Source: a virus. Taken from it: a stretch of DNA of 45,908 nucleotides. The DNA is taken from positions 1-45,908 of the IMG/VR virus record IMGVR_UViG_3300017643_000011. One strand, written 5' to 3'. Of this stretch, positions 4,146 through 41,200 are shown piece by piece. A model generated the notes under the pieces. That model saw only the letters and a program-made list of their open reading frames with translations. It was not told the origin of the DNA and made no database searches. Every line of letters begins with the position of its first letter. Positions within the stretch are counted from its first letter, which is position 1. Position numbers and translations under genes: made by a program.

Positions 4146-5840
4146 TCAGAAGGGGCGGCGCACGGCCTGCACCTTGGCCTTGCGCTTGCGCGACGCGAAC
4201 TCGGACAGCATCGACAGGGCGTCCGGCGCGTCATCGTGGCGGTTCTTGCCCTGGAGGGCGTAGCTCGTGAGCTGGGACAGGAACCGCGAGTAGTCGGACC
4301 CCGGTTTGACCTCGGACTCGTCGAGGAACAGGCAATGCTCCATAATCCAGGGGGAGGCGGCCAGTATGCGCGTCTCCTTGTTGCTGCTCGTGTACTTGGT
4401 GGTGATGGCGGTCTGGCCCTCCCGCGCGACGAGCATGTTCGACACCTCACGGGCCGTCGCGCCGCCCGCCGAGTTGCTCTCGAACCTGGCCTGCTGCACG
4501 CCGTTGCGCATGAGGCACTGGACCAGCCTCTCGCGCACCAGCTCGGGGGCCGCATCGTCACACACCACATCGCCTATGTACCAGTCCTGGCCGTACACGT
4601 AGGCCACGGGCATCACGCAGAAGTCGATGCCCCGGTCCTTGGTGTCTGCCACGGCCACCACCGCGTCGGGTGGGTCGGAGGGCATGGACAGGAACCGCCT
4701 CAACTGGTCGGGCGGGAAGAGCTGTCCCTGACGGACGTACGGCGCACCCTCGTACTTGGCGCACCACGTCGCATCATCGGTCATCCTCTTCATATCAATA
4801 TAGTAACTTGTCGAGAACCCCAGCCCGTACTGGTACTCGAAGTTGCTCTCACCCGTCGACGGGTCGAGCGCGGGTATCACCAGCTCGCGGTAGCCCGGCT
4901 CCCCACGGTGCATGTCGAGCATCCGTCCCTCGGGGTCGGCCACGTCCCAGCGGGTGCCGACCATGAGTATCTTGGTCCCGTCCTTGCGGCGGTCGTAGGC
5001 CTGGTTGACGAACGCGCCCCACTTCCGGTCGAGGCGGGCGGGACTCATGGCCTCCTCCAGGTCCTCCACGAGGTCATCGGCATAGAGCCAGCCGTGCTCG
5101 CCGACCTCGACCGCGCCCGTGAGCGTGCCCTCGATGGAACGACACGTGAGGGTGGGGAACCGCCGCCTCGCGCGAAGGGCTATCGCCTCGTCCTCCGAGG
5201 AGTCCCACACGTAGGGCGACTCGGGGAATATCTCGTGGTAGTTGTACCGCTCCTCGGTCATCATCGACTTCGACTCGCCGTAGAAGCCCTTGGTGAGCTT
5301 GTCGGAGTGGCCCGTCATGAGGTTGGCGTCGAGCGGGTGGCGGCCCATGTGCCAGTTGAGGCCCATGATGCAGGTGGTCGACTTGCCGACGCGGGGCGGG
5401 CAGGACACTATGAGCATCCGCTCGTTGGGGTCGTCCTCCAGCCGCTGTATCCCCTGGCAGAGCGGCATGAGCTGGCGTCGCCTCGGCAGCCAGAACCGCT
5501 GCTCGGGGGGACGGTCGAACTCCATGGCCTGCATGTAAGCGTCGAAGTCGTCGTGGGCGTCGACGATGAGCTGCCCGCGCAGCAGGTCGCCGAGCCGCTG
5601 CACGACCCCCGCGTCGCGGGTACCCGTTATGCCCCGTCCCAGGAGCCTGCGCAGCTCGGCCCCCGCCGCACGGTCGGTGCGCCCACGGGCGTCCCTCACC
5701 GACCTGAGCCATGAGCATGCGTCCTCCGCGACCGACACATCGCATGTGTCGTGCCCGTAGGCGTCGAGCACGCCCCTGGTCACCCTGTCCTGTTCCAGAA
5801 CATCCATGCCCCCGAGCGTCACATGGACGCCCGGGGGCAC
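4146..5840 (-). CDS. terL: terminase large subunit
   Basis: 564-aa ORF with Walker A-like 'SCPPRVGKST' in the N-terminal ATPase half, followed by a nuclease-sized C-terminal half. Sits immediately upstream of portal. Start is ambiguous (GTG 5840 or ATG 5807). Confidence 0.85.
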   Translation of the reverse strand: MPPGVHVTLGGMDVLEQDRVTRGVLDAYGHDTCDVSVAEDACSWLRSVRDARGRTDRAAGAELRRLLGRGITGTRDAGVVQRLGDLLRGQLIVDAHDDFDAYMQAMEFDRPPEQRFWLPRRRQLMPLCQGIQRLEDDPNERMLIVSCPPRVGKSTTCIMGLNWHMGRHPLDANLMTGHSDKLTKGFYGESKSMMTEERYNYHEIFPESPYVWDSSEDEAIALRARRRFPTLTCRSIEGTLTGAVEVGEHGWLYADDLVEDLEEAMSPARLDRKWGAFVNQAYDRRKDGTKILMVGTRWDVADPEGRMLDMHRGEPGYRELVIPALDPSTGESNFEYQYGLGFSTSYYIDMKRMTDDATWCAKYEGAPYVRQGQLFPPDQLRRFLSMPSDPPDAVVAVADTKDRGIDFCVMPVAYVYGQDWYIGDVVCDDAAPELVRERLVQCLMRNGVQQARFESNSAGGATAREVSNMLVAREGQTAITTKYTSSNKETRILAASPWIMEHCLFLDESEVKPGSDYSRFLSQLTSYALQGKNRHDDAPDALSMLSEFASRKRKAKVQAVRRPF

Positions 5841-5842
5841 GT

Positions 5843-5855
5843 GTATCGGTCTTAC
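5843..5855 (-). repeat. intergenic motif, copy 2 (GTATCGGTCTTAC)
   Basis: 13-nt match to the 17-mer at 4128/34064, located 3 nt upstream of the terL GTG. Confidence 0.6.
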
Positions 5856-5877
5856 TTGTTAGGTAGAACCATCCAGG

Positions 5878-6510
5878 CTATGCGAAGGTGAGCGAGTCGA
5901 GCAGGACCTGATAGGTCGCGTGAGTGAACGCCCCATCCTCGGCCGAGCCTATCACGGCCACGGTATATATTCCACCATCCTCGGGCGAGCCGAACGATAT
6001 GATATCGCCTTTCAGATGATAGCCACCCTTGATGTCGAAAGACCCGCTGTCGTGGAAGGCAGTACGCCCGGCGAACGTGACGGCCCCGCAGGGCGACGCC
6101 GGGTCGAGGTTGTCGGTCTCGTCCCACAGCGCGTCCGTGTCCGTCCCCGTGACGCTCTGCTCGTATGATTCCGCCGCGAGTTCGACATCGGCAGTATCCT
6201 CGGTGGCGATGAATGCCACTACGGCGATATACGTCTTGCTCCCCGAGCTTTGCATCTGGCACGACTGGTTCCCGCGATCGTTCGCCTTCCTCTTCTGGGT
6301 CCAGCCGTCAGGCACCTCGAACGTGACCTTGCCGACGGTAGCGGTCTTGGGGACCGGAGCCGGGGTCGGTTCCTCGCTCGTCTCGGTGCTCGTCGCCGCG
6401 TCCTGCGACGTCGATGCCGCCGGACTCGCGCAACCTCCCAGTGCCACTCCCAACGCCAACGCCACTCCCAGCACCGCAGCACCCATCGTCACGAATCGGT
6501 CCCGTCCCAT
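5878..6510 (-). CDS. secreted lipoprotein (moron; possible superinfection-exclusion factor)
   Basis: N-terminal signal peptide with lipobox 'GVALGGC', followed by a Ser/Thr/Pro-rich linker. An AT-rich patch and AAGGGG SD lie upstream at 6511-6553. Confidence 0.7.
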   Translation of the reverse strand: MGRDRFVTMGAAVLGVALALGVALGGCASPAASTSQDAATSTETSEEPTPAPVPKTATVGKVTFEVPDGWTQKRKANDRGNQSCQMQSSGSKTYIAVVAFIATEDTADVELAAESYEQSVTGTDTDALWDETDNLDPASPCGAVTFAGRTAFHDSGSFDIKGGYHLKGDIISFGSPEDGGIYTVAVIGSAEDGAFTHATYQVLLDSLTFA

Positions 6511-6553
6511 GCGCCGCCCCTTTTCGATATGATTCCGAAGTGCTTTCAGAATA

Positions 6554-7177
6554 CTACAAGGAAGCGGGCCGGTCGGGTTCCACTTCCCGTCCCCAGGCCT
6601 CGGCGGGCACCGCCTTGTGTCGGTACCACGTGCTCCTGCCTATCCCCATGTCCGCGCACGCCTGCGCCACCGTCTCCTCCCCCCTGCCTATCCTGTCCTC
6701 GTGCCACGCCCTCGGGTGTCCATGGGACGTCGCCCTCGGCCTGCCCTCGCGCCAACCCGGGCGCTCCCGCGCCCTGCGCTTGCCCTCGGAGGTCCTCTCG
6801 GCGATCATGTCGCGCTCGAACTCGGCCACGGCGAGCATCACGTTGCGCAGCAGCCTCGACGCGGGGTCGCCCGCGAGCGTGCCCACGTTGAGCACCGTCA
6901 CCCTCACCCCGCGCCCGTCCATCTCGTCAAGCAGCGTGAGGCCGTCCGACAGCGAGCGCGCGAAGCGGTCCATCTTGGTCACCACCAGCTCGTCTCCCGA
7001 CGTGAGGCGTGCCATGAGGGCGTCGAGCGCGGGCCTGTGCTCCGAATGGCCGGTAAACGCCTCCCGCACGACCTCGGTGCACCCCTGCTCGCGCAAGGTG
7101 GCCTCCTGGGTGTCGAGAGACGTGCCGTCCGCCGCCTGCCCACGAGAACTGACACGGGCGTAGCCGTAACGGGTCAT
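6554..7177 (-). CDS. small serine recombinase (resolvase/invertase family)
   Basis: 'YGYARVSSRGQ' catalytic-Ser motif, 'VVTKMDRFARS', and a C-terminal HTH 'GIGRSTWYRH'. About 207 aa. ATGA overlap with the upstream ORF. Confidence 0.85.
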   Translation of the reverse strand: MTRYGYARVSSRGQAADGTSLDTQEATLREQGCTEVVREAFTGHSEHRPALDALMARLTSGDELVVTKMDRFARSLSDGLTLLDEMDGRGVRVTVLNVGTLAGDPASRLLRNVMLAVAEFERDMIAERTSEGKRRARERPGWREGRPRATSHGHPRAWHEDRIGRGEETVAQACADMGIGRSTWYRHKAVPAEAWGREVEPDRPASL

Positions 7178-7452
7178 CACCACACCCCCCGCTTCCGCCA
7201 ATCAATCTGCGGGTATCCCGGCGTGTCCCAGTCGGTCGTACCACGACATTTGGTCCAACCGCCGGCGGGAGTCTGGCCGCACGAGGGGCACCAGACGCGG
7301 GCCTCGGTGAGAGGGTCATCGACCCCCTCGGACGATGCAGTGAGACGGCCGCCGCACACGAGGCATGGGTGGATTCCCTCGGGATGGGCGTTGAGCCACT
7401 GGGCGTAGGTCATACGGGACGGAAGGCCACCGTCAATCAGCGTCAGCGACAT
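7177..7452 (-). CDS. zinc-ribbon protein (CxxC...CxxC), unknown function
   Basis: 'CLVCGG...WCPSCG'. Translationally coupled (ATGA) to the recombinase and overlaps the HTH gene end by 20 nt. Confidence 0.5.
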   Translation of the reverse strand: MSLTLIDGGLPSRMTYAQWLNAHPEGIHPCLVCGGRLTASSEGVDDPLTEARVWCPSCGQTPAGGWTKCRGTTDWDTPGYPQIDWRKRGVW

Positions 7453-7702
7453 CGTTCCCTGCCTCCCCGCAACCAATCGGGTCGACGCGCCTGGCCTCGG
7501 GCGGGAGCTTCGTCCCCCGAGGGACCGCCACGAGGTCGTAGCCAAGCACGTCGAGTATCTGCCATAGGGTCTTGGCGGTCATGTTGCCACGACGAAGTGC
7601 GACCGCGATGGACGGAGGCTTCACGCCGAGCCGCTCCGCCACATCCTTCTGTGAACTGCCACGTGAGGCTATCAGCTCACGAATGGCGTCCGAAATGTAC
7701 AT
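7433..7702 (-). CDS. XRE/Cro-type HTH transcriptional regulator
   Basis: 'SQKDVAERLGVKPPSIAVALRRGN' HTH. SD GAGAGGA upstream of ATG 7702 (alternative ATG at 7708). Divergent from the plus-strand operon. Confidence 0.7.
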   Translation of the reverse strand: MYISDAIRELIASRGSSQKDVAERLGVKPPSIAVALRRGNMTAKTLWQILDVLGYDLVAVPRGTKLPPEARRVDPIGCGEAGNDVADAD

Positions 7703-7741
7703 ACGCATGTCCTCTCTGTGATTACATCGGCGTTTACGTTT

Positions 7742-8045
7742 GTCTAACACAATAATGCATAGTCATACGTCTAACAAGTCCTTTTTAGATTTTTTTCTCC
7801 TCGCGGTACTCAACAGGCGGATTCTACCTAGGATCAATCCCTGCCCGGTACCCTTGCCATAACGTTATTGCTGGTACACGTGTAGTGCGTCTCGTTACAC
7901 GCCTATGCATCTATTGCGTAGCTCAAAACTGTTGAGTATAGAGACACTCATATTGGTTAGACGTTCGTTTATGTAGATAATGTGAACCACTGGACACAAA
8001 TTAGACGCTTGCTTAATCTATAGTCATGTTAAACGAACGTCTAAC
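7742..8045. promoter_or_regulatory. divergent promoter/operator region with five ACGTCTAAC-type sites
   Basis: GTCTAAC at 7742 and 7767-7775. Exact 15-bp inverted pair GTTAGACGTTCGTTT (7956-7970) and AAACGAACGTCTAAC (8031-8045). TTAGACG at 8001. The surrounding sequence is AT-rich. Confidence 0.55.
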
Positions 8046-8058
8046 GAACGGAGTCACG

Positions 8059-8397
8059 ATGCATACAGTCCAAGCTTACATAGGCCACAACGTGCACGAC
8101 GTACCGACTCTCTCAACGCGCGAGGTATGCGACGCGGTAGAGAAGGGACTGAACGCCCGGCCTATCCTCGCGCCGGCCTACACGACCCAGGACGCGCGGG
8201 GCATGTGGCAGGGCGTGGCCGAGGACACGACGATCGTGACGCTTGCACTACTTGAGACACGCGACACACTGAACGCGGCCCTCGACCTCGTGCAAGACGT
8301 GTGCGACGCGTGCGAGCAAGACGCGGTGCTGGTAGTGGTAGACGGCTCCTCACAGCTCATAGAGGCCACACGCAAGCCCATGAAGAAAGCACTCTAG
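8059..8397 (+). CDS. hypothetical protein (island 2, gene 1)
   Basis: ATG 8059 preceded by GGAG. The upstream ATG at 8026 lies inside an operator repeat. No family recognised. Confidence 0.55.
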   Translation: MHTVQAYIGHNVHDVPTLSTREVCDAVEKGLNARPILAPAYTTQDARGMWQGVAEDTTIVTLALLETRDTLNAALDLVQDVCDACEQDAVLVVVDGSSQLIEATRKPMKKAL

Positions 8398-8412
8398 AGA
8401 GAGAAGGACATC

Positions 8413-8805
8413 ATGTACGACTATGAAGCAAGCCGCCCGTACTGTAGCGAACAATTGACCGGACGCGCCGCAACCCGATTCTATCGCGCAACAAGTGCTT
8501 ACGACCTTGCCACGAGGATCAAGGAAACGCCGCTGGAGTCCGACGTAAGAGCCGCGCGCGACTTGCTTGACCGTGTGACGCGCTACGCGCTTGCAGAAGG
8601 CCGTGCGTGCGAGGTCGACAACGACTCTAGCCGATACGACGAAGCACGAAGCAAGCACACGGAAGACCTGCTAGCAAAACGCCGCGCGCGTCTTGTGGCA
8701 GAACTCACGGCGTACGGCGCAACGCTGGAAGACTACGGAGTCTATCCGTCAGTGATTGACGCCACGACGCATCAAGACTTGTATGCCATTCATTTCTACG
8801 ATTGA
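8413..8805 (+). CDS. hypothetical protein (island 2, gene 2)
   Basis: 130-aa ORF with SD GAGAGAAGGA upstream. No family recognised. Confidence 0.6.
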   Translation: MYDYEASRPYCSEQLTGRAATRFYRATSAYDLATRIKETPLESDVRAARDLLDRVTRYALAEGRACEVDNDSSRYDEARSKHTEDLLAKRRARLVAELTAYGATLEDYGVYPSVIDATTHQDLYAIHFYD

Positions 8806-8900
8806 TGCATTGTAGACGACTATGGAAGTTACGTTATTGATAGTTGGCTATCTATTGGGCGGATTGGGCATGTGGTGGAGCCTCAAGGGAGAGAAATAAG

Positions 8901-9578
8901 ATGTTCGATATCAACGCATCAAGTTTCAAGCCGATTAAGTCTGTGGCCGGACTTTGTAGTTGCGAGAACCGTCCGATATACGACACGATCGCGCTTCTCG
9001 TGCGCGACGGTTCGGCCATGTGGTGGGGCGGTAGTCCCTACATACAGGCGCGCGCCATTCTCACCGGCAAGCTGAAAGACGAACCGGACACGTTTCACAG
9101 GTACGACGCCAACACACTATTGTCAGTACTCAAGCCAAAGTCGCACATGACAATCACGGACGCCGGGGACATCGAGATTCGTACCGGCGCTAGCGTCGTG
9201 ACTATCCCCGACACGGCCACCACCGGAACAACGGGCCACGACTACCGGACCACTGACAAGGCCCTTGAGTTCTGGGGAACGAGTCGCGAGATTGACGGTG
9301 TGCCCGCCTATGACCCGAAGATTCTCGCCAAGGTCATGAAAGCACTCACTAGTGCCGGCGTGACGCGCACGTCGATTGATCTGATACATTCCCCAGCGCA
9401 CGTGTACGGAGAAGCGTATCGCGTGGGCGCGCGCTTGCAGATTCTCATGATGCCATGCCAAGCGCTTCCACTGACATATGAGGCCATGGGCCGCCTCATG
9501 TGCGACATCAAGGGCGACAGCAAGGGCATCACCGACTACGTGACGCGAGAGGATGATACGAAAAATGATAATTTCTGA
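8901..9578 (+). CDS. hypothetical protein, possibly sliding-clamp-like fold (island 2, gene 3)
   Basis: ATG 8901 after AAGGGAGAG. The sequence pattern (N-terminal 'F.I....F...I..V', 'RPIYDTIALLV', C-terminal 'LQILMMP') loosely recalls DnaN-type beta-clamp domains. Recall by eye only. Confidence 0.55.
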   Translation: MFDINASSFKPIKSVAGLCSCENRPIYDTIALLVRDGSAMWWGGSPYIQARAILTGKLKDEPDTFHRYDANTLLSVLKPKSHMTITDAGDIEIRTGASVVTIPDTATTGTTGHDYRTTDKALEFWGTSREIDGVPAYDPKILAKVMKALTSAGVTRTSIDLIHSPAHVYGEAYRVGARLQILMMPCQALPLTYEAMGRLMCDIKGDSKGITDYVTREDDTKNDNF

Positions 9579-9897
9579 CCCGTGGGGCATAGGCCGGACG
9601 CTTGAGGACAAAGAGACGGAAATCAAGGACCTAACCACGTACGACCTCGCACGTAAGTGTGGGCTACCGGACGACGCCGCCCGGTTCGTGGACGAATGGC
9701 TACCGGAGTATCGCGCGACTCTGACTTTGTACCTCGCCTATTGGCCCTACTCGTGGCTTACGATCGCAGTCATGGATGATAAAGAGTTGAACGATTGGCT
9801 TGCATGCTATCCAATTACGCGCGAAAAGTTCGAGGAAGAGCGCGGATCGATCTACGAGGACGCGAGCTTTATAGGCCATTTGGTGATAGGGAAATGA
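9553..9897 (+). CDS. hypothetical protein (island 2, gene 4)
   Basis: 114-aa ORF overlapping the previous gene by 26 nt. Alternative ATG at 9565. Confidence 0.5.
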   Translation: MIRKMIISDPWGIGRTLEDKETEIKDLTTYDLARKCGLPDDAARFVDEWLPEYRATLTLYLAYWPYSWLTIAVMDDKELNDWLACYPITREKFEEERGSIYEDASFIGHLVIGK

Positions 9898-9898
9898 C

Positions 9899-10237
9899 AT
9901 GAGAAGCGACTGGTACGAGGGATTTTCGATTGTTGACCCGGACAACGGGGAACAGGTAAGCATGTACAGGGTCTACGAGCGCGACGAACCTATTGGCATC
10001 CGACGCCACGGACACACAAAATGGTATCGCACAACGTATTCCAGAAAGTCACTTATCAAGGTGAACAAGACGTGCATATCGACCTGCTCACAATCCGAAT
10101 TATTTGAGTTTCTTTCCGACCTATGCACACCACGTGGCGCGTTCCGGTTCATCCGCGCGATATGCGAGCACACAAAGCCCACGCGTTGCCCGATCCTACC
10201 CGAATACCTTACAAACTACCCCGAACTTGGAGAATAA
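9899..10237 (+). CDS. hypothetical protein (island 2, gene 5)
   Basis: 112-aa ORF starting 1 nt after the previous stop. Confidence 0.55.
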   Translation: MRSDWYEGFSIVDPDNGEQVSMYRVYERDEPIGIRRHGHTKWYRTTYSRKSLIKVNKTCISTCSQSELFEFLSDLCTPRGAFRFIRAICEHTKPTRCPILPEYLTNYPELGE

Positions 10238-10238
10238 G

Positions 10239-10457
10239 ATGTCTAAGAACGTAATGTCTCCCGACAAGCTACCCGCCTATTTCAATAGCACCGACGGCTG
10301 GTACAAGGACAAGCGCGCCTACGCCTACACGCTCTGTGACCGACTCACCGACGCACAGAAGACGAAACTGCTCGAGAACGAGGACGTACGTCTCATAACC
10401 TGCCACCATCGCTACGCGCCGGAACTGGTATATGATGTCGTTGTCGTTCTCCATTAA
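10239..10457 (+). CDS. hypothetical protein (island 2, gene 6)
   Basis: ATG 10239 after GGAGAATAAG, 1 nt after the previous stop. 72 aa. Confidence 0.55.
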   Translation: MSKNVMSPDKLPAYFNSTDGWYKDKRAYAYTLCDRLTDAQKTKLLENEDVRLITCHHRYAPELVYDVVVVLH

Positions 10458-10487
10458 GATAGCCAAACGGACGAGGGAGAATTCATT

Positions 10488-10559
10488 ATGATTTACATTC
10501 TGATATCAATCCTGCTGTTTCCCCTTGCGGTCATTGTAGGTATCCTCAAGTCGCACTAG
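10488..10559 (+). CDS. possible 23-aa hydrophobic peptide (MIYILISILLFPLAVIVGILKSH)
   Basis: ATG preceded by GAGGGAGA. One predicted TM-length hydrophobic stretch. It is the last ORF before the terminator and too short to be certain. Confidence 0.3.
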   Translation: MIYILISILLFPLAVIVGILKSH

Positions 10560-10587
10560 CAAATAAGAAAGTTAACCACATACCGTA

Positions 10588-10627
10588 GAAAAAGACCCGC
10601 TAGGCAAACGCCCGGCGGGTCTTTTCG
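10588..10627 (+). terminator. rho-independent terminator closing the plus-strand operon (bidirectional shape)
   Basis: AAAAAGACCCGC...GCGGGTCTTTTCG: GC stem flanked by an A-run and a T-run. Confidence 0.6.
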
Positions 10628-10826
10628 TGTGAAAATGGCCCTCGTTGATCCACGGAGGGCCGTTTTCGGGCCGTTCTAAGGCATTCTAAGCCCTCGGGAG
10701 TGCCATTATGGACAATCCCACCACATAGGCCCATACGTGGCGTGAAAATGGCCTCAGAACGTCACAAAGTGGCATCCTCATGCCTCACGGATAGCCCACG
10801 AGACCACCAGACGCCACGAGGGCCAC

Positions 10827-10862
10827 GAAAAAGCCCCTCGCGACCATGAGGCCACGAGGGGC
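10827..10862 (-). terminator. rho-independent terminator directly after terS
   Basis: Minus strand reads GCCCCTCG-(14 nt)-CGAGGGGC followed by TTTTTC, beginning 10 nt after the terS stop. Confidence 0.55.
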
Positions 10863-10872
10863 GAGGGCTACG

Positions 10873-11922
10873 CTAGCGGGCCTTGCGCGGTCCCGTCTTG
10901 AGGGCGGGCACGCCCTTGTTCGTCATGCGCACGGTACCGTCTGGTAGCACGTGCGGCTCGTGGCCCATGAGGGCCTCAAGGTCCGCCAACTGCGAGGGCG
11001 TGGCGGCGCGTCCCGCGTCCGGGAGTATGCGCGCCACGGCCGCACGGACGGCCGCGTTGGCGGCGCGCTCCCGGTTGGTCCACGACATCGCCGCCCATTC
11101 CTCGGTCGGGACGTCCAGGGGGCGGCCCGTCCTCGCGTCTATCCCGAAGCGTTCCGCGTATTCGCCGGCCGTTCCCACCGTCTTCCGGTGGGATCGCCGC
11201 GTATTCGCCGGCTTTCGGGCGGTATTCGCCGGCTTCCGGGCGGTATTCGCCGGGTCTTTTCCGGTATTCGCCGGATATTCGCCGGGCTTTTCCCCACGTT
11301 CGCCCGTATTTGCCAGGCCCGGGGCGGTATTCGCCGGCATCGGGGCCTCGTATTCGCCGGCCTCGTATTCGCCGGCCTCCTCGGCGGGGACCTCCACGCG
11401 GACGTCCTCGGCAGGGAGGGCCGACGCGTACCTCGCCATGATCTGCGCGGGCGAGCGGGACTCGGACCCCTGTATCTGCACGTTGATGTTCTCGGTCGTG
11501 TCCTTGTAGCCGAAGTTGTTCTTGCCTAGGAATATGCCCGTGACCGGGTTGCGGAACTCGTCGTTGGCGAAGGCGTACTCCCAGTAGGTTGACATAAGAT
11601 TGAGTGCGTTTTTGATGATAAGGCTGGACTCGGGCGTAAGCTGGGCGGCCCATGTGCCCGTGTTGTCCCCGTTGGTCCAGCGCATGAGGCCGTCCCTCGT
11701 CGTGTTCAGCGCCATGCAGAACCCGCTCAGCAGCGGCTTGCTCCCGTGCCTCTCGCACAGGTCGAGGTACCAGTCTATCCTCTCCCGCACCGCGTCGGCG
11801 TCACCCAGATCGACCCTCCTCAACCCCAACAGCTCTCGGCCCATCTGGATGCACTCGCTGTTCTGCTCCCTGCTCATGGCCCTCGCGTTCGGCGGGTTCC
11901 CCTTCAGACTCCTCTCGCCCAT
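10873..11922 (-). CDS. terS: terminase small subunit with long repeat-containing C-terminal extension
   Basis: The N-terminal 170 aa show TerS (Terminase_2-type) features: 'KPLLSGFCMALNTTRDGLMRW' HTH and 'GIFLGKNNFGYKDTTE'. The C-terminal part contains the GEY/PANT repeats. Confidence 0.8.
   Translation of the reverse strand: MGERSLKGNPPNARAMSREQNSECIQMGRELLGLRRVDLGDADAVRERIDWYLDLCERHGSKPLLSGFCMALNTTRDGLMRWTNGDNTGTWAAQLTPESSLIIKNALNLMSTYWEYAFANDEFRNPVTGIFLGKNNFGYKDTTENINVQIQGSESRSPAQIMARYASALPAEDVRVEVPAEEAGEYEAGEYEAPMPANTAPGLANTGERGEKPGEYPANTGKDPANTARKPANTARKPANTRRSHRKTVGTAGEYAERFGIDARTGRPLDVPTEEWAAMSWTNRERAANAAVRAAVARILPDAGRAATPSQLADLEALMGHEPHVLPDGTVRMTNKGVPALKTGPRKAR
11169..11386. repeat. 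array of about 10 copies of GTATTCGCCGG inside terS, mostly 21-bp phased
   Basis: Copies start at 11169, 11212, 11233, 11254, 11275, 11287 (variant), 11317 (variant), 11338, 11361 and 11376. Confidence 0.9.
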
Positions 11923-12256
11923 GTCGTGTCTCCTCTCTCGTTCGTTGCGTTATGCGTTCACACGAGATGTGGGTGCAGTCTCGTCAAAACTCCCTATCCT
12001 CTTTCTATATATATATTTTTCTCTTTGCTAGGCTCAACAGTAGGACTTCGTTGGAAGTTGCACCGGTAGAGTGTTTCTCATGGGTACTCACCAGGCCTTT
12101 CGTTCTTCAAAAGTGGGTGCATTGAGGTCACACCCCGGCTGCACCCCAAACACCCTCGGAACGCTTCGAAGTCGCTTCGGCGTCGGTCGATTCGTTTCGC
12201 CACGGTCGTCCGGGTGATTTGGGTGCTCGGGTGGTGTATTTTGCGAGCACCCCACT

Positions 12257-26170: not shown

Positions 26171-26304
26171 GCGGGGCGTTCGAGTATGTGCGTGGGCTGT
26201 CCATGTATAGAACACTAGTTCTAATGCCGGACAGAAATGTTTCAGACAGGGGAAGTCTCGGTCAGCGGTATAAGACTCCTCGCGATGCACGCATCTGAGA
26301 TTTT

Positions 26305-26337
26305 TGCTGCCAAATCTGCTGCCAAGTTGCTGCCAAA
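26305..26337 (+). repeat. three direct TGCTGCCAA(A) repeats (candidate integrase arm-type sites, arm 1)
   Basis: Copies at 26305, 26317 and 26328. The same 9-mer is repeated three times at 26533-26565. Confidence 0.7.
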
Positions 26338-26342
26338 CAAAA

Positions 26343-26372
26343 GAGGTCACGGGAAACATAGCCCGTGACCTC
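26343..26372 (-). terminator. hairpin terminator following the tRNA 3' fragment
   Basis: 11-bp perfect stem GAGGTCACGGG/CCCGTGACCTC, followed on the minus strand by TTTTGTTT. Confidence 0.55.
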
Positions 26373-26380
26373 GTCATTTA

Positions 26381-26430
26381 TGGTGGGCGTTGCAAGATTT
26401 GAACTTGCGACCTCTTCCGTGTCAGGGAAG
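26381..26430 (-). other. attP core: 3' portion of a long-variable-arm tRNA (variable arm, T-arm, acceptor 3' strand, CCA)
   Basis: Minus strand reads CTTCCCTGACACGGAAG-AGGTC-GCAAG-TTCAAAT-CTTGC-AACGCCC-A-CCA. No matching 5' acceptor strand or D-arm lies upstream. Confidence 0.65.
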
Positions 26431-26532
26431 TTAGGGTATAGTCGATTATCTGCCGACACTGCATCTACCTGCTAATATGTTGAGCACGAAAGAGGTCATA
26501 GGTGCTAGAATCGTCTAAAAACGGAGATGATT

Positions 26533-26565
26533 TGCTGCCAAATCTGCTGCCAAATCTGCTGCCAA
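26533..26565 (+). repeat. three direct TGCTGCCAA(A) repeats (arm 2), abutting the int ribosome-binding site
   Basis: Copies at 26533, 26545 and 26557 with 12-bp spacing. The int ATG is at 26586. Confidence 0.7.
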
Positions 26566-26585
26566 AAAAGGAGGACATATAAAAT

Positions 26586-27689
26586 ATGGAACTCGGTGGG
26601 GACTATCTCAGAAAGCGTGGCGACAAATGGCAACTGTGCATAAGATATCGAATCGATGACAATGACACGTGGCACATCAAGACGCACACGAGTGCGGCCA
26701 CCACGAAGCGTGACGCGAAGGCAGACATGCGCCAATGGCGAGACACGCTTGAAGGGCAAATCATCGCCGGTGATACCGCCGCCTACATCGCCGACTACGT
26801 GGATCGCTATGTGGACATGCTGGAGTCGGCCCATACCATCCGTCCGAACACGGTGGAGGGCTACCGATATGCGGCACTGCACATTCGCAAGGCTTTCGCC
26901 ACGACCCCACTGGACCGTCTGACAGCTCAGAAAGTGCAGAAGTGGGAAGCGTCCATGCTCTCCACCGGAAAATCCGTGGAGACCGTCACGAAGACCCACA
27001 GACTACTCAAGGCCGCCCTCGCGTATGCCGTGGAGGTGGACGACATCACCAAGAACCCCGTAGCTGCCGTGAAGCCACCGAAGATGCCGGCAAGACACCC
27101 GAACGCCCTCGATGCAGCAACGCGCAAGCGTCTCATGGAATCCCTCGACATGATGGGAGACTCCCCCGTCACGATGGCCGCGTGGATCGCCATGTGCGGC
27201 GGGCTTCGCGAGGGCGAGATATGTGGCCTCCGATGGGATGACGTGGACATGCGGGACGGCACGATGTGGGTCCGACGCGCGATAGCCCATACCAAAGCCG
27301 GAATGTACGTCAAGGAACCCAAGTCAGGACATGCACGAGACGTACCCATCACCGACACGCTCATGCGTCACCTCAAGGCGTGGCATGAGTACAGCACGTC
27401 CATCTACGTCATAGGCAAGGGCAAGGACTACCACAACCCGGCCATGCTCGGCAAGGAGTGGCGCACGATCTCGCGGGCACTCAACCTCGTCGGCACCGAA
27501 GGCCGGACCTGCACCTTCCATGACCTGCGCCACACCTTCGCCACCGCCGCCATAGCAGCGGGAGTGGACGTCAAGACGGTCTCGAGCATCCTGGGACACG
27601 CCAACGCCGCCATGACGCTCAACGTCTACGCGTCGGCCGACCCAGACGCGAAGAGGCGAGCGGCGAGTGTCATCGACGCCGCCATATGA
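26586..27689 (+). CDS. int: tyrosine integrase
   Basis: 'GLREGEICGLRW' (Arg), 'FHDLRHTFAT' (H-x-x-R), 'LGHANAAMTLNVYAS' (His...Tyr). SD AGGAGG. Confidence 0.9.
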   Translation: MELGGDYLRKRGDKWQLCIRYRIDDNDTWHIKTHTSAATTKRDAKADMRQWRDTLEGQIIAGDTAAYIADYVDRYVDMLESAHTIRPNTVEGYRYAALHIRKAFATTPLDRLTAQKVQKWEASMLSTGKSVETVTKTHRLLKAALAYAVEVDDITKNPVAAVKPPKMPARHPNALDAATRKRLMESLDMMGDSPVTMAAWIAMCGGLREGEICGLRWDDVDMRDGTMWVRRAIAHTKAGMYVKEPKSGHARDVPITDTLMRHLKAWHEYSTSIYVIGKGKDYHNPAMLGKEWRTISRALNLVGTEGRTCTFHDLRHTFATAAIAAGVDVKTVSSILGHANAAMTLNVYASADPDAKRRAASVIDAAI

Positions 27690-27927: not shown

Positions 27928-28875
27928 ATGAATAGATATGACAAGCTATACATAATCGGCAATGGACTCGATTTGCATTGTGGTATGCCGACCAAATACA
28001 GTGATTTCAGGGAGTATATGTTTGATACCCTCGACAAAACATATGGATACGACGGTTTCGGGCAGTTCATAGATAGGTATCCTAATCTTTGCCCCGATTG
28101 GCATAATTTCGAAGATGCGTTGGGACAGATTACCTGTCAGCCTATCAGTGATAGTTTTGAGGAATATCACGATATGTATGAAGCTGAAGTCGATCCAATG
28201 GATGACCCCGACTATGCAGTAGTAAATGCGTCAGAAAACACAGAAGAGGAGGTCAGCTCCTTCGACGAAGAGTCACTTAGAAAATACCTGCGGGAATGGG
28301 TTAGGAGTATTCCATTACCATCAGGTTTGTCCTTCGAGACACTTGGCATCATCGATACAGAAGGCACGCTATATATTAGCTTTAATTATACAAAAACTCT
28401 TGAGCAGGCGGGTGTCGATTCATCTCGAATCTGCCATATCCACGGTGCAATTTCAGATGAAAGTAATGATCTTGTCATAGGTCACGCCGCCCCAACTGGC
28501 AACATTAAAAAGTCAATCGATGACGCTGACACGAAATACTGTCCTTCCATTGAAGACAGACAACAGGATTTCTTTCCACATGGTGCATTCGACAAGGCAA
28601 ACCGCATTGTCGATGCAACCGAGAAACAAACGTTTGATCTCATCGCCGCGCACAAGGACTTTTTTGAACTCATCTCGGGTGTCAAGACAATCGAGACTCT
28701 TGGCTTTGGCTTTGGCGAGGCAGATATGCCGTACATCGAGAAAATCGCTTCCATTGCTTCAAAATCTGTCTCGTGGGAAATACGCTGTCATGACACAACC
28801 GCACGTGACGAGGCACAAAAGATGCTACAGAAGCATTCTCTCGAGTTATCCGCACACATTAGCGAGAGTTACTAG
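27928..28875 (+). CDS. AbiH-family abortive-infection protein
   Basis: 'KLYIIGNGLDLHCGMPTKYSDF', 'ISFNYTKTLE', 'ICHIHG', 'LVIGH', 'LGFGFGEADMPYI' follow the AbiH family pattern. AT-rich codon usage. Confidence 0.75.
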   Translation: MNRYDKLYIIGNGLDLHCGMPTKYSDFREYMFDTLDKTYGYDGFGQFIDRYPNLCPDWHNFEDALGQITCQPISDSFEEYHDMYEAEVDPMDDPDYAVVNASENTEEEVSSFDEESLRKYLREWVRSIPLPSGLSFETLGIIDTEGTLYISFNYTKTLEQAGVDSSRICHIHGAISDESNDLVIGHAAPTGNIKKSIDDADTKYCPSIEDRQQDFFPHGAFDKANRIVDATEKQTFDLIAAHKDFFELISGVKTIETLGFGFGEADMPYIEKIASIASKSVSWEIRCHDTTARDEAQKMLQKHSLELSAHISESY

Positions 28876-29047: not shown

Positions 29048-29264
29048 AGCGTCTGCCGATAAACGGGATTATGTCTTGTCGGTTTGCGGGAAATCCCGTG
29101 TATGTTTGTCCGAATCTCCAGCGAACAGGCCTTAGAACGCCTTACAGCAAGCCATCTACCTGGCATTTTGCCATATAGTTTGAGAGTACTTCATTACATA
29201 GAAACAGTGTCGATATTCGGTATTATTTTGAAAGAACATGTCTCGTTAAAACAGACGGGTGAAT

Positions 29265-32271: not shown

Positions 32272-32387
32272 GCGGTCTCCAATCAAGAAAGAGGAGGGAC
32301 GCCCTCCCGGACGGCCTTCCTCCTGTTTCACTCGCCTTGCTGTAAGGCTCTCTAAGCCCTTGTGATGGATGGTGTGGGGCAGTGGGC

Positions 32388-34132: not shown

Positions 34133-35449
34133 CTATACCTCGTGTGCTATCCAGTTGGGCTTGGCAAAGTTGCCGAGCGTGTTATGGTCGCCATCGACGG
34201 TCAGCGTATAGGAGAAGGTGTAAGAAGTACCGGCCCTTGCCCCAGAAACCACGAGCCGAGCGTTCAGCAACCTCCCGACAGTATCGCCACCGAGCAACGC
34301 TCCGGTATAGTAGGCTACCTTGGTGAGTCCGGCCGGGGCGTTGATACTGAGATGCGTCAGGTTTCCAGCCCAACCCCACGTGGAATCAAACGCCAAGCAC
34401 ACGTCAAGGGTGCAATCCCGGGGAGGCACGATGGTGATGGTACTGTTGCCATGCGCTTCATGCCAGCGGTCTGCGGAAGAGATATATGCAGTATCCGCGG
34501 CACCAAGAGCCTGTCTGGCCGCGCTCGCCGTCGCTCCTCCGGTTCCTCCTTGCGTGATTGGCAGTGTTCCGCTCGTGATGTCAGCGGCGCTATGTTGGTG
34601 GAGGAGCGGGGCGAACGCGCCCTTGAGCTTCGACCAGAGGTACGTGAGGCCCGTGGCGTTGAGGTACTTCGTCCCCGCCACCTGGCCGTTGGCGCACACC
34701 GAGTCGATGTCCGCGGTCGGGATGCCGACGGGCGTGGGGGCGGCGGGGCCGAACTCCTCCCATGCGCTGCCGATGTAGGCCCACTCGTTGTACTTGTTGT
34801 CCCCCGTACCCGACGTGTCGGGGGTGAGGTAGAGCACGCCCGGCGTTCCCGTGACGGTCGGCTCGCCCGTCGAGGCGTTGTACTGCCCGCTCGAGAGCAC
34901 CGTGAACTTGAGGTTCTGGGCCGCGTCCATCATCTGGGTGAACTCGGACGCCCTTGAGCTTTCGGCACCCACACGGGCCGTCTCGGCGCTCGCGCGGGAG
35001 GTCTCCGCCGAGGCACGGGCCGTCTCGGCGGTCTTCCGCGCCGACTCGGCCGTGACACGAGCGGTCTCGGTGCTCACACGAGAGGACTCCGCGCTCTTGC
35101 GGGCCGTCTCCGCCGTGACGCGCGCGCCCTCGGCGCTCGCACGGGAGGTCTCGGACGTCTTTCGCGCCGTCTCGTCGGTCACACGAGAGGCCTCCACCGA
35201 CGCACGGGAGGTCTCGGCCGTGGCACGTGCCGTCTCCGCGTTCTCGCGGGCCGTTTCGTTGGCGGTCACGCTGGCCTCGAAGTGGTCCTGGTAGCCCTTG
35301 AAGAAGGCCGCGTTGAGCTTCGTCCCCGCGGTCCCGTCCCCCGGTTGGCGGGTCATGTCGTAGACCCCGTGCGGGGCGTCCACCGCGGTGAGCTTGATTC
35401 GGTTGGGATAGGGGTAGGCCTCGTCTACGTAGGTGGGTGTGTCAGCCAT
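34133..35449 (-). CDS. tail fibre / receptor-binding protein with about 15 heptad repeats
   Basis: 438 aa. Residues 63-168 are repeats of [AT]E[TS][AS]Rxx. Last structural gene before lysis. Confidence 0.7.
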   Translation of the reverse strand: MADTPTYVDEAYPYPNRIKLTAVDAPHGVYDMTRQPGDGTAGTKLNAAFFKGYQDHFEASVTANETARENAETARATAETSRASVEASRVTDETARKTSETSRASAEGARVTAETARKSAESSRVSTETARVTAESARKTAETARASAETSRASAETARVGAESSRASEFTQMMDAAQNLKFTVLSSGQYNASTGEPTVTGTPGVLYLTPDTSGTGDNKYNEWAYIGSAWEEFGPAAPTPVGIPTADIDSVCANGQVAGTKYLNATGLTYLWSKLKGAFAPLLHQHSAADITSGTLPITQGGTGGATASAARQALGAADTAYISSADRWHEAHGNSTITIVPPRDCTLDVCLAFDSTWGWAGNLTHLSINAPAGLTKVAYYTGALLGGDTVGRLLNARLVVSGARAGTSYTFSYTLTVDGDHNTLGNFAKPNWIAHEV

Positions 35450-37809: not shown

Positions 37810-38232
37810 TCACACCTCCACGAGGTTGCACTGCACGTCGACCCACATGGTCGCCCTGCCCGACGAGTCGGCCATGTAGGGGGTCGCCTTGCGGTCGCCC
37901 ACGTACATCTCGCGCACGACGCGACGCCCGTAGCGCGGGTCGTAGAACTCCACATACCAGACGTACGAGCCGCCCTGGTCCCGGTCGAAGAGCGCGAGGA
38001 GGTTGTGGAATGCATCATCCTCAAGTGCCGCCCACGAACAATCAATCTTGCACTTATCCGACCCTATGGGCTGGCCGATGAAGTCGCCATTCGCGTTGCG
38101 GCCACCGTTCACGGTGGTCTGCACCTGGAACGTTCCCGACCCCTTCTTGGGGGTCGGGAGCGAGGTCCAATCGGTCCCGTTCTGGGACAGCCGTATATAT
38201 CCCTCGTTCTTGGCTTGGAACACCTCTACCAC
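37810..38232 (-). CDS. distal tail protein-like component
   Basis: 140-aa ORF immediately after the tape measure gene. Assignment by synteny only. Confidence 0.4.
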   Translation of the reverse strand: MVEVFQAKNEGYIRLSQNGTDWTSLPTPKKGSGTFQVQTTVNGGRNANGDFIGQPIGSDKCKIDCSWAALEDDAFHNLLALFDRDQGGSYVWYVEFYDPRYGRRVVREMYVGDRKATPYMADSSGRATMWVDVQCNLVEV

Positions 38233-41200
38233 TCCCCTGCCTTCTTCATCGCGTAGTCGATGCGCTTGCCCACGTCCACCCCGTCGAGTTCGGTCGTGAA
38301 CACGCCGGACTTCTTCTCGATGGCCGAGACCATGGCCCGCTCGATGGTGTCGAACAGACGGTCCTGGTCGAACGTGAACGTCTGCGAGCTGCTCGAACTG
38401 ACGCTCACGGCGGGCGTGCCCAGGGAGAGCGCGCCGGAGCGGAGGGCGAAGGACGCGCTCTGGTTGGCCGCGGTGATGGCCCCCTTCGCCATGCTGCCCG
38501 CGCTCGTGGCCACGTCATCGGCCATGTAGTCGATGCCGTTTATCATGCCCATGTCGAACCACTTGCCCTGCTGGAAGGTGGCCTTGGAGGGCGACCCCTC
38601 CTGGGCACCGTCATGGGAGCCTTGCACGGCTCTCTCGCCCACGCGGTGTGCAGCCCAGTAGACCGCGCCGCTCTGGGCGTTGATGCCGTTGACCATGCCC
38701 CAGTCAAGGTTCTTGCCCGCGTCGTATGCGCCCCAGTAGTGGTCGCCCATGCCGTTCACGGCGTCCTGGCCCCGGTCGCTGCCGACCCAGAAGAGGCCCA
38801 TGCTGCCAACGCCATCGCCGAACCCGCCCGCGAGGTTGCGCCCGGCGTCGTACGCGCCCCAGTGCTTGCTACCGAGACCAGCCACGACCTGTTGCGCAAC
38901 ATCGCTGCCGACGTTGGCGAGGGTGTACCTGGTGTCGGAGATGCCGTCGCCGAAGCCGCCACCGAGGTTCCTGCCCGCGTCCTCGGCCGCGCCGTGCCTG
39001 GACCCGAGGCCGCCCACGGCGGTGTCGGCCAGGTCGCTGCCCGTGGCGTGGACCTTGCTGCCGTAGGACTCGATGCCGTCGCAGTAGCCGCCCGACATGT
39101 TGCGTCCGGCGTCGTTGGCCTGCTTGTATCCAGCCCCTCCGTTGAAGCCCTCGACGGCCTTGCGCATCATCGAGGCCGCCTCGTTCACCGCGCGCTTCCC
39201 CACGGTGTCGATGCCGTCGCAGAAACCTCCTCCCAGGTTCTTGCCTGCGGAGAGGGCCTCGTTGTAACCGTTGCCGCCGTTGAGGCTGTCGATGATGGTC
39301 TGACGAACGGCGGCCATGCTGCCCATGTTCTCGTTCGCGGCCTCGGTGATGCCGTCGAAGTAGCCACCTGAGAGGTTGCGACCCGCGCTCTTGGCCGCGT
39401 CATAGCCCGCGCCGCCGTTCATACCCTGGACCGTGGCGGTCTGGACCGCTTGTCCCTGCTTGTTACCCGCGTCCGTCGTGCTCGCGAGTCCGTCGTTGTA
39501 CGCGGTGCCGCTGGCCTCGCCCGACGCCCTGAAATCGGGGTCGTGGAGCGTGGTGCTCTTCGCGGCTGCGGTGCTCAAGCCGGCCATGGCCTTGGTGAGG
39601 TCGGAGGTGTCCCCGTTGTTGTTCACCCCGTCCACGAAGCTCTGGTAGCCTTCGGTGCCTATCTGCTTGTCGTCGGCGACTATCTGGGCGCGGGCGTCCT
39701 CGTTGCCGTCGGCCACGAGGTCCCGGAGGGTCTTGCTGTACTTGGTCGGTCCGCCCTCTTCCAGGGCCTTGATGAAGTTGCTTTGGGCACCCAGCCCGGT
39801 CTCCGACATGAGCGTTTGCAGGTTCGCGGACCAGTCGGCGGTCGCCGCCACGTTGCTGTTGAGGCTGTCCACCATCTCGTCGACGGATATCTGGGAGGAC
39901 TCGTCTATCTTGCCGAAGTCGTTGACGGTGGCGGTGGCGAAGTCGTCGGCCGCCTGGGCGGCGTCATCGAAGGCATCCTCGTCCCCGCCCACCTTGGCGG
40001 CGAGGTCGTCGGCGCTCACGCCGTTGGCGTCCATGGCGTCCTTGAGCCAGCCGTGGCTCTTCGCGTAGTCCTCGATGCTGCTAGTGGTCTGCTTGAGCTG
40101 GTCCGCCTGCTCCTGGGCCGCCTGCGTGTTCGCGTCGGTGGCATCGGTGGCGTCCTGCGTGTCGGAAGCGGTGTCGCTCGTGGTGATGCCGAGGGCGGAG
40201 AGCACGCTGTTGATGCCGCTGAACAGCGGGGCGAGCGGGGTCGAGGTGGCGAGCCAGTTGACGAACCCGCTGACCATGTTGCCGAGCAGGGGCACGAGCG
40301 CCCCGAGTATGCTCACCAGCGCCATGCCGGGGATGGCGTCCATGGCTGCGGCCAGGAGGCTCGACGCGGCGGCCCCCGCCGTCTCGGCCACGTTGGCTGC
40401 AATCTGGGCGATGGTGTACGCGCCCTTGGTTCCCGTCGCCACGACGGTCTGAGCCGCTGCGGTGCCGAGAAGGCCGGCCTGCTCCTTGAGGCTCGCCTTG
40501 GAGGTCCCGGTGGCCGCTGTGGCCGCAATCTCCGCGTCCTTGGCGGCCTGCGTAGCCGTCTTGTACTTCTCCCTGAGGCGCGATGCGAGGGTCAGCCCCT
40601 CGCCGTTCGCCTTGGTCGCCCGTGTGTCCGAGGTGATGCTCTCGGTGAAGTCATGCACCTGCGTCTTGGCTGCGGCGAGCTTGGCCTTGAGGGTGCCGAG
40701 GTGGGAAGCGAATCCCATCTGGGCCTCCGCCGCCCGTGCCGTGTTGCTGGCGAGGGATGCGAGGCCCGTCCTGAACGTGGCCGTCTCGGAGACGCTGCTC
40801 TGCATGGTCTCGCGGCTGCCCGACACGACGCTGTTGAAGGTCCTCGCCATGGCCGATGTGTTGGCGAAAGCCTCGCCGAGCGTTCCCTTGAGCGCGGTGC
40901 CGAGACTTCCGGCCTGCGCGGTCGCGGTCGTGGAGGACGCGAGCACCCGGTTGCCCATCAGCTCGAACGCCGTTCCGAGCAGGCTGACGCCCGCGATGAC
41001 CGCCTGGTTGACGATGTATGCCCCGAGCACGACACCGAGACCCTGGACTATCGGGGTGGCCTGGCCGAGGCTCACGAGCATGGTGGCGAGGCCCATGACT
41101 GCTGAGCTGATGCCCTCGACGGTCCCCGCGATGGCATTGAGGATGGGTGTGGCGAGGGCGGCGGCGAACCCGAGCACGAGACTCGTGCCCTGCCCCAGCG

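Follow-up and report, generated by a model that had tools for sequence, protein, structure and literature searches.

In phage P22, the immI region (mnt and arc-ant) is a second control region among the late genes, in which an antirepressor operon faces a small repressor gene and the operators lie in the shared divergent promoter region. In acr-aca operons, the counter-defence genes stand behind a promoter with inverted-repeat operators for a small helix-turn-helix (HTH) autorepressor, and such operons can sit in the structural gene block. Here we describe a locus that is like both in part, the DNA of about 5 kb that separates the small and large terminase genes (terS and terL) in the IMG/VR virus record IMGVR_UViG_3300017643_000011, of which the whole stretch of 45,908 nucleotides (nt) was analysed and is called the window. 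Between the two minus-strand genes lie a plus-strand cassette of open reading frames (ORFs), a divergent control region, and the genes of a small HTH regulator and a small serine recombinase at the head of the terL operon. This order is kept in relatives whose cassettes carry unrelated genes.

As at immI, the cassettes of the relatives often encode an antirepressor and face a small HTH gene, and putative operators lie in the divergent region. In contrast to immI, the regulator here belongs to HTH_3 and not to the ribbon-helix-helix proteins, it heads the terL operon with a serine recombinase attached, and the cassette of the window has no recognisable antirepressor. The likeness to the acr-aca operons consists of the counter-defence genes, the putative inverted-repeat operators and the small HTH gene; however, the HTH gene here is divergent rather than downstream in the same operon, and the cargo is not limited to anti-CRISPR genes. 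Accessory regions between conserved flanking genes are presented as a concept in bioRxiv 10.1101/2023.04.06.535777. Phage accessory hotspots (morons, anti-defence accessory regions, P2/P4 hotspots) and the present locus are alike in their conserved flanks, fast-changing genes and counter-defence content, but the slot here lies between terS and terL on the opposite strand, and it has an HTH regulator of its own, conserved non-coding elements, a conserved terminal micro-ORF and a recombinase inherited with terL. This kind of hotspot is already known; the present one is set apart by its unusually elaborate conserved frame and by the recombinase-terL linkage, and no description of the layout or of the linkage was found in literature searches.

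Conservation of the layout between terS and terL

The shared scaffold begins with terS, its repeat array and a terminator, and continues with a reverse-strand cassette, the divergent control region, the small HTH gene, the small serine recombinase gene and terL. More than 12 diverged relatives keep it, found in genomes of Collinsella, Olsenella and Clostridia and in gut metagenomes. Among the six lineages retrieved via the terS protein, five had the same order, as did two IMG/VR loci found with TerL, while the sixth (L011) was arranged differently; L001/2, L004, L008, L014 and L016 are among the lineages sharing the layout. In these lineages terS is followed by a gap of 0.3-1 kb, 2-6 reverse-strand genes, the divergent region, the HTH gene, the recombinase gene, 0-3 further genes and terL. 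The distance between the two terminase genes is 5 kb in the window and 2.2-8 kb in the relatives, with repeat arrays in or beside terS. The same order was observed in the relatives of the TerL alignment, which were Collinsella aerofaciens, C. ureilytica, a Collinsella metagenome-assembled genome (MAG) and several Clostridia MAGs, at TerL identities down to ~33%, and an HTH homologue stood at the same position in all relatives having the layout. Recombinase homologues of 49-51% identity (L098 and L100) occupied the same place in phages with other capsid types. Among the best 80 loci of at least 480 confirmed IMG/VR matches to the recombinase alignment, terL lay downstream of the recombinase gene on the same strand, 55-3573 nt away, in 75. 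Upstream sequence of at least 3 kb was available for 70 loci; a reverse-strand block was present there in 62, and 58 of the 70 had 0-2 forward genes directly upstream of the recombinase gene. The pairwise identities of the recombinase and of TerL were correlated (Spearman 0.84, 66 pairs).

We explain the interval best as an ancestral layout, shared by a large clade of temperate siphophages that infect Coriobacteriia and Clostridia in the gut, with terS and terL in separate transcription units. We put its probability at roughly 0.65 as a whole, a figure that extends beyond the observed anatomy, conservation, cassette turnover and S-adenosylmethionine (SAM) lyase fold to the proposed promoters, operator binding, timing of expression and role of the repeats as packaging site (pac). 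The preliminary description of the window had started from the premise that terS and terL are normally adjacent, which fails for this TerL clade; even in the distant Clostridium phage Maintenon (38% TerL identity), the annotated terS and terL are 2.6 kb apart, with small genes, a tRNA-Trp and a tRNA-Gln between them. If the explanation holds, terS and terL can stay in separate transcription units over long evolutionary distances, and their separation bears on automated phage annotation and on the prediction of pac sites and transduction.

The features that the preliminary description had placed in this ~5-kb separation, among them the divergent operator region, the HTH gene, the Zn-ribbon-like ORF, the serine recombinase gene and the lipoprotein gene, were all located at its positions, and the non-coding stretch that it had put at ~310 bp measured 313 bp. 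The interval and its two flanking genes are composed as follows.

4146-5840, minus strand: terL, large terminase (phrog_38, E-value 3e-56)
5878-6510, minus strand: lipoprotein gene with lipobox LGGC, in a second variable slot (recombinase-terL)
6554-7177, minus strand: small serine recombinase of 207 amino acids (aa) (PF00239, E 4e-34)
7177-7452, minus strand: Cys-pair (zinc-ribbon-like) ORF of 91 aa, with CLVCGG...CPSCGQ in the translation
7433-7702, minus strand: HTH_3 regulator of 89 aa (PF01381, E 2e-6), first gene of the terL operon; the ORF extends to 7750
7703-8058: divergent region of 356 bp
8059-10559, plus strand: cassette of seven ORFs with a G+C content of 48-60%, against 62-72% in the flanks
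10560-10872: non-coding stretch of 313 bp
10590-10625: hairpin, an inverted repeat with 16-nt arms (88% complementary) and an A-run and a T-run either side; candidate bidirectional terminator closing the cassette
10670-10697, minus strand: tandem element GGGCTTAGAATGCCTTAGAACGGCCC
10833-10862, minus strand: intrinsic terminator of terS, 13-bp stem with 10 G-C pairs, 4-nt loop, TTTTT tail
10873-11922, minus strand: terS, 349 aa, stop codon TAG at 10873-10875
11154-11379: tandem and dispersed repeats inside terS with GCCGGCGAATAC core and periods of 21 nt and 15 nt; candidate pac or TerS-binding array
12005-12045, minus strand: element of 41 nt upstream of terS, 71% identical to blocks 2 and 3 upstream of the HTH gene and at an equal distance to the start codon

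An integrated hitchhiker between terS and terL was also proposed in the preliminary description; such a mobile element could be a transposon, a satellite or an integrative element that brought the HTH and recombinase genes along. It would fit the lower G+C content of the cassette, the presence of a recombinase gene, and the likeness of a conserved block in the divergent region (block 1, described below) to the 3' end of tRNA-Gln, a typical attachment-site core. The tRNA genes in the terS-terL interval of Maintenon and a 73-aa tyrosine integrase fragment between the recombinase gene and terL in L016 (11910-12131, minus strand) would fit it as well, and taken together these points would allow for a very old event in which an element entered a phage tRNA gene. 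However, direct or inverted repeats bounding the interval or the cassette were not found above chance in any of the seven lineages examined, and the integrase and attachment site (attP) of the phage lie elsewhere in the window (26381-27689). The recombinase co-diverges with TerL and is encoded upstream of terL in ~94% of the best 80 IMG/VR loci, the layout spans the whole range of TerL identities given above, and turnover is confined to the coding part of the cassette, where the breaks fall at gene ends or near them. The split, the HTH gene and the serine recombinase gene are ancestral and were inherited with terL. From the shared order, the co-divergence of recombinase and TerL and the lack of bounding repeats, a recent insertion is therefore excluded, and a hitchhiker of any age is highly improbable.

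Turnover and cargo of the cassette

The cassette is an accessory-gene hotspot, with conserved flanks and unrelated content in the relatives. The alternative name given to the interval in the preliminary description, a cargo hotspot, thus stood, since the cassette as well as the slot between the recombinase gene and terL were wholly different between relatives with the same flanking genes; alignment with the relatives gave the same, ancestral arrangement, and the gene content of the cassette was not conserved. Homologues of the cassette genes G-K, of the Cys-pair ORF and of the lipoprotein were found only in near-identical copies of the window phage. Across lineages the cassette ORFs were unrelated with one exception, 200 cassette ORFs from 62 loci fell into 74 clusters, and the recombinase-terL slot of other lineages held 0-10 unrelated genes. 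In L050, L052 and L057, which share flanking DNA of 80-92% identity, the coding part of the cassette was replaced with breakpoints at or close to the gene ends, the right-hand break lying just upstream of the first cassette gene and ~180 nt short of block 1. Such boundaries point to ordinary mosaic recombination rather than site-specific exchange. The seven ORFs of the cassette in the window are listed below.

8059-8397, plus strand: gene F, SAM-lyase-like by profile and fold match
8413-8805, plus strand: gene G
8901-9578, plus strand: gene H
9565-9897, plus strand: gene I
9899-10237, plus strand: gene J
10239-10457, plus strand: gene K
10488-10559, plus strand: micro-ORF for a hydrophobic peptide of 23 aa, MIYILISILLFPLAVIVGILKSH, the last cassette gene, called as a gene in L097

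SAM lyases are anti-restriction and anti-BREX proteins. Gene F belongs to a small family of proteins of ~100 aa, which was recovered by an exhaustive homologue search, while a word-indexed search returned gene F itself only. The family profile matched the phage SAM lyase Svi3-3 (6ZM9) with an E-value of 4e-5. The single-sequence AlphaFold model, with a predicted local distance difference test score (pLDDT) of 49, was unusable and the alignment-based model (pLDDT 92.6) was used instead; its best fold matches were 6ZNB and 6ZM9, with a template modelling (TM) score of 0.83 and a root mean square deviation of 2.1 Å to 6ZNB. Gene F probably encodes a SAM-lyase-like protein with a counter-defence function, as judged from the profile and the model.

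Genes G-K had no family match in Pfam, PHROG, PADLOC or NCBIfam, and gene G resembles, by eye, a cassette protein of an unrelated phage group. PADLOC returned nothing for the cassette genes; only the HTH gene was matched, to the PDC-M64 HTH components. Terminal peptides similar to that of the micro-ORF, 23-35 aa long, were observed in L001, L004, L014, L048, L052/L057, L056 and L059, in both the high-GC and the low-GC groups, and they share a short motif around a Pro as well as a C-terminal Lys. In L100, the promoter-proximal cassette gene encodes ArdA. The recognisable families in the IMG/VR cassettes included AntA/ORF6C, Bro-N/ANT and Rha antirepressors, an FtsK-like ATPase, GP88, and an AcrIC5-like protein (E 2.8e-7). 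Antirepressor domains were frequent in the cassettes of relatives. Among the recognisable families, the cargo appears to be largely counter-defence and lysis-lysogeny control, and most of the cargo has no assigned function. In a large group of human-gut phages of Collinsella, Olsenella and Clostridia, the reverse-strand block that separates a gp3-type terS from an HTH-recombinase-terL operon offers a fixed address to gene hunters, and new counter-defence and lysis-lysogeny genes are likely to be found in that slot.

On the other side of the divergent region, the Cys-pair ORF at 7177-7452 was called as a gene in the twin contigs and is lineage-specific; its match to the Lar-like restriction-alleviation proteins was weak (E 0.007).

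The divergent control region and transcription

The region between the HTH gene and gene F contains two candidate promoters, a conserved non-coding element and a set of operator-like sites.

7749-7777, minus strand: candidate sigma-70-type promoter of the HTH-recombinase-terL operon (TTGTTA, 17 nt, TATTGT), overlapped by two GTCTAAC half-sites
7780-7853, minus strand: conserved non-coding three-block element; block 3, an A-tract, at 7780-7799, block 2 at 7799-7816 and block 1, GGGTACCGGGCAGGGA, at 7838-7853
7953-7971, 8000-8016 and 8030-8048: three near-palindromic operator-like sites around the candidate cassette promoter (-10 TATAGT at 8019-8024)

Promoter hexamers equivalent to those upstream of the HTH gene, together with the A-tract, aligned in 11 lineages. 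The three-block element has the consensus GGGGTACCGGRCAG, a spacer of ~25-30 nt, CTWAGCCCC and the A-tract; it is single-copy, lies between the two promoters, and shows no clear dyads. Block 1 likewise has a single copy; it hardly varies among the high-GC lineages, where the blocks keep a fixed spacing, and it is limited to this subgroup (13 of 76 loci). Where the recombinase gene is absent, in L054 and L055, the element persists in degraded form and block 1 is substituted at positions that are otherwise invariant. A motif search of IMG/VR with block 1 gave 29 matches, of which only 3 were relatives already known and the remainder chance.

Read in reverse (window 7838-7857), block 1 corresponds to the T-stem and the acceptor 3' strand of a tRNA-Gln family, and among the 28 metagenome matches to an extended block 1 pattern, 17 lay at the 3' ends of tRNA-Gln. 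No intact tRNA was found in the loci of the relatives. This likeness may be the relic of an old tRNA-linked event or the result of convergence. Two roles of block 1 were ruled out. It is not the attP of the phage, as the region is intact in the apparent prophages L052 and L095 and the real attP (26381-26430) lies by the integrase gene; nor is it the crossover of cassette exchange, given the distance and the position of the breaks in L050, L052 and L057.

All four copies of GTCTAAC in the genome fall within 7742-8045, and the outer two of the operator-like sites form a 19-nt inverted repeat (7953-7971 and 8030-8048) that is 95% complementary, with 58 bp between the arms. Every lineage repeats a palindrome of its own at the corresponding place in the divergent region, which would be expected if a co-varying HTH protein represses both promoters. 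We infer from these sites that the HTH regulator represses the two divergent promoters via lineage-specific operators.

The same inverted repeat, which surrounds 58 bp with the candidate cassette promoter, would also suit a recombinase acting as a DNA invertase that flips the cassette or its promoter as a phase switch, as in Hin, Gin, Cin and Mpi. The recombinase is like Hin, Gin and Cin in being a small serine recombinase, its best PHROG match was "DNA invertase" (phrog_125, E 1e-45), and the cassette, on the opposite strand, adjoins the recombinase operon. The operator core AGACGTTCGT fits ARACGTWCGT, which we take to be the consensus of the Bacteroides Mpi invertase sites, probably by coincidence; the match of the recombinase to the Mpi model of NCBIfam was weak (40 bits, against a cut-off of 272). 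In contrast to the invertase systems, no flanking inverted sites or orientation polymorphism were found here. The cassette flanks shared no inverted repeats in seven lineages, the cassette pointed the same way in every relative and at each of the four distinct places seen in the nine contigs of the window phage, and no minus-strand homology was present among the 80 best IMG/VR loci, where assemblies could hide a minor orientation. Moreover, either arm of the 19-nt repeat is nearly palindromic on its own, as would be expected for an HTH operator, and 58 bp is very short for inversion. The chance that the recombinase serves as such a switch is very remote.

In the explanation that we prefer, an ancestral layout with two terminase units, terS would end one transcription unit, in the window with its own promoter-like element and in most relatives as the last gene of the replication operon, and it would be followed by the repeat array (candidate pac) and the strong terminator. 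The terL operon would restart ~3 kb on at its own promoter, with the HTH regulator and the serine recombinase as its first genes, and the cassette would occupy the opposite strand between both units, with a promoter diverging from that of the HTH operon. Early functions that are needed briefly would be supplied by the cassette, either counter-defence (a SAM lyase here; ArdA and the AcrIC5-like protein elsewhere) or antirepressors (Ant, Bro, Rha). The HTH protein would then bind the lineage-specific palindromic operators overlapping both promoters, by which the cassette would be turned off and the HTH protein would limit itself, a control like that of Arc and Mnt at P22 immI or of the Aca repressors at anti-CRISPR loci. 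New cassette genes would replace old ones by ordinary recombination at gene boundaries, while the conserved flanks hold the slot in place. For late transcription, the preliminary description had named both read-through and a restart past the interval; the restart is the likelier of the two on account of the similar promoter-like elements found at the same spacing upstream of the HTH gene, where the element is conserved, and upstream of terS. To judge from this similarity in sequence, both terminase units may share one promoter type.

Several points weigh against this explanation. L061 is without the whole arrangement, and L054 and L055 are without the recombinase. A function was assigned to only one of the seven cassette genes in the window. 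With 8 of 12 positions, the match of the candidate promoters to the sigma-70 consensus is weak, and they fall below the threshold of the promoter scan. No terminator was found between the HTH and recombinase genes and terL, so that an autorepressed promoter would drive the structural genes poorly if no activator worked at the conserved element upstream. Finally, no role is assigned to the recombinase, which is the most conserved component.

The terminases, the repeat arrays and the recombinase

The gene at 10873-11922 had been taken as terS in the preliminary description, and this assignment was upheld. The TerS of the window alone matched PF16677 (GP3_package) with an E-value of 5e-5, below the Pfam cut-off, while 14 of the 16 aligned homologues matched this family (best E 2.8e-13) and the homologue in L098 carries the Pfam hit outright. 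Homologues of this TerS are rare, with 13 clusters among 5.8 billion proteins, and the relatives are ~200 aa long. The protein is a TerS of P22 gp3 type, with a core of ~190 aa and a C-terminal extension through the repeat array; the extension of the ORF through the GCCGGCGAATAC array probably accounts for its length of 349 aa and for the PANTARK and GEY peptide repeats. The array differs in copy number by one 15-nt unit in the twin genome. TerL was 51-57% identical to the TerL of high-GC (Coriobacteriia-type) relatives, in which the alignments begin at about residue 24-34, and the true start of terL may be the ATG at 5808.

The terminator hairpin that the preliminary description had noted right behind terS runs from 10862 to 10833 on the minus strand and begins 10 nt past the stop codon. 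Terminator-like sites in the region were not above the number in shuffled sequences (4 found, 4.2 expected); the site behind terS is unusually strong, and an equivalent hairpin with a T-run was present behind terS in L001, L004, L016, L048 and L052. Searches with Rfam, over the whole window at the gathering threshold and over 7400-11000 by E-value, returned terminator-like noise only. In the relatives, non-coding arrays of 3-10 direct repeats with the consensus GCGACTTTCGCG-N5-CTACAC lie just 3' of terS, and in L011 an 11-nt unit is repeated ~10 times directly behind it. The arrays track terS and not the type of the replication module, which favours a role as pac. Past the array of L011 (10598-20597), the lysis and tail genes are on the opposite strand, and the whole late module is therefore inverted relative to terS.

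The tandem element GGGCTTAGAATGCCTTAGAACGGCCC was kept downstream of terS in L001, L002, L003 and L008, and L004 and L014 have variants of it. Three copies of the motif CTTAGARNGSCTTA are present in the window, at 10677-10690 (minus strand), 29131-29144 (plus strand) and 32343-32356 (minus strand), in one orientation relative to local transcription; the first of them is kept behind terS in several lineages. The other two belong to an inverted repeat of 25 nt, 88% complementary, which flanks a 3.2-kb plus-strand accessory segment between AbiH and the endolysin. The repeats may delimit a segment that inverts or moves, or they may be sites for a repressor or a roadblock. In two samples the same phage gave a contig of 28.5 kb (L097) that ends right past the micro-ORF (about window position 10560), in the non-coding stretch; this end could be an assembly break at the repeats or a real DNA end.

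A TerS of P22 gp3 type and a TerL like that of Tuc2009 each suggest that DNA is packaged by the headful from a pac in or near terS; the TerL of the window is weakly related to that of the P335-group lactococcal phage Tuc2009 (26% identity). These relationships bear on the possibility that the ends of the virion DNA (cos or pac) lie at 7780-7860, so that terS and terL would stand at opposite ends of the linear genome and be split only on the circular map. The three-block element would suit such ends in its rigid spacing, its G+C-rich block adjoining an A-tract, its single copy per genome and its place directly upstream of the first gene of the late operon. In addition to the types of both terminases, the repeat arrays that track terS speak against it, and so does the similar block 2/3 element upstream of terS, as expected of a promoter element rather than of a cleavage site. 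Virion DNA ends at this place are clearly improbable.

The recombinase aligned along its full length to the Tn3 and gamma-delta resolvases (residues 11-194 for Tn3), with the motifs YARVSS and DRFARS present, and its best matches in the PDB were the Tn3 and gamma-delta resolvases and a DNA invertase (E ~1e-17 to 1e-18). Among the catalytic residues, Y6, R8 and S10 were conserved in at least 90% of 12 homologues and R71, R74, E121 and R122 were invariant, and the protein looks catalytically intact in its sequence. The likeness to the Tn3/gamma-delta resolvase with its res site thus comprises a recombinase of ~190 aa, the same motifs, and a gene adjoining a divergent region with a single-copy conserved element. 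However, no transposase among the window ORFs and no terminal repeats were found, as would mark a Tn3-type transposon, a res with three subsites is not demonstrable in the window, and a separate HTH protein appears to supply the operator binding.

In phage P1, Cre-loxP is placed near pac. A recombinase and a single candidate site a few kb from the putative packaging start, in the direction of packaging, are shared by the present locus and P1, but the recombinase here is a serine and not a tyrosine recombinase, and the phage integrates via its own tyrosine integrase. A role of the recombinase in packaging or entry would be exerted at a single site in the divergent region, where it would circularise the terminally redundant first headful in the manner of Cre-loxP, or fuse and resolve genome circles, with the cassette filling the space between pac and the site. 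Each genome has one conserved single-copy element adjoining the recombinase operon, the candidate pac repeats lie 2.5-8 kb upstream in the direction of terL, the linkage of the recombinase with terL is tighter than any other feature, the catalytic residues are conserved, and the two lineages without the recombinase, L054 and L055, have substitutions in block 1 at positions invariant elsewhere. On the other side, block 1 is confined to the high-GC subgroup and the recombinase is not, the element persists, degraded, without the recombinase, and it has no clear dyad symmetry. The distance from pac to the site reaches 8 kb in L053, long for terminal redundancy, and the phage already has an ERF-type recombinase. 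Such a role is unlikely. The broader proposal that the recombinase heading the terL operon in hundreds of gut phages is a packaging-linked system with a single site in the divergent region, a counterpart of Cre-loxP, is similarly doubtful. If it were true, the recombinase would circularise the first headful after injection, or build or trim multimeric packaging substrates, and the accessory cassette would ride in the DNA between pac and the recombinase site. The analysis has in any case brought to light a tightly conserved linkage of the recombinase with terL.

The phage is a temperate siphophage. The ends of the contig are identical over 127 nt (1-127 and 45782-45908), and from this exact terminal repeat the contig is a circular genome of 45,781 bp. 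The structural genes on the minus strand include terL, an SPP1-type portal gene and a tape-measure gene at 38226-43691. The same phage was recovered in nine contigs, one of which is 254 kb in length and probably an integrated prophage. Relatives were located in Collinsella and Olsenella genomes, and the host is probably a member of Coriobacteriia. The features of the window outside the terminase region are as follows.

26381-26430 (within 26300-26590): attP for the tyrosine integrase; a tRNA 3' half in reverse complement, with a set of TGCTGCCAAA arm repeats on either side
26586-27689: tyrosine integrase gene
27928-28875: AbiH gene

A further repeat array was observed at 34929-35257, where ~15 tandem units of 21 nt lie inside a minus-strand ORF of 438 aa (34133-35449) with an MSP1 jelly-roll domain.

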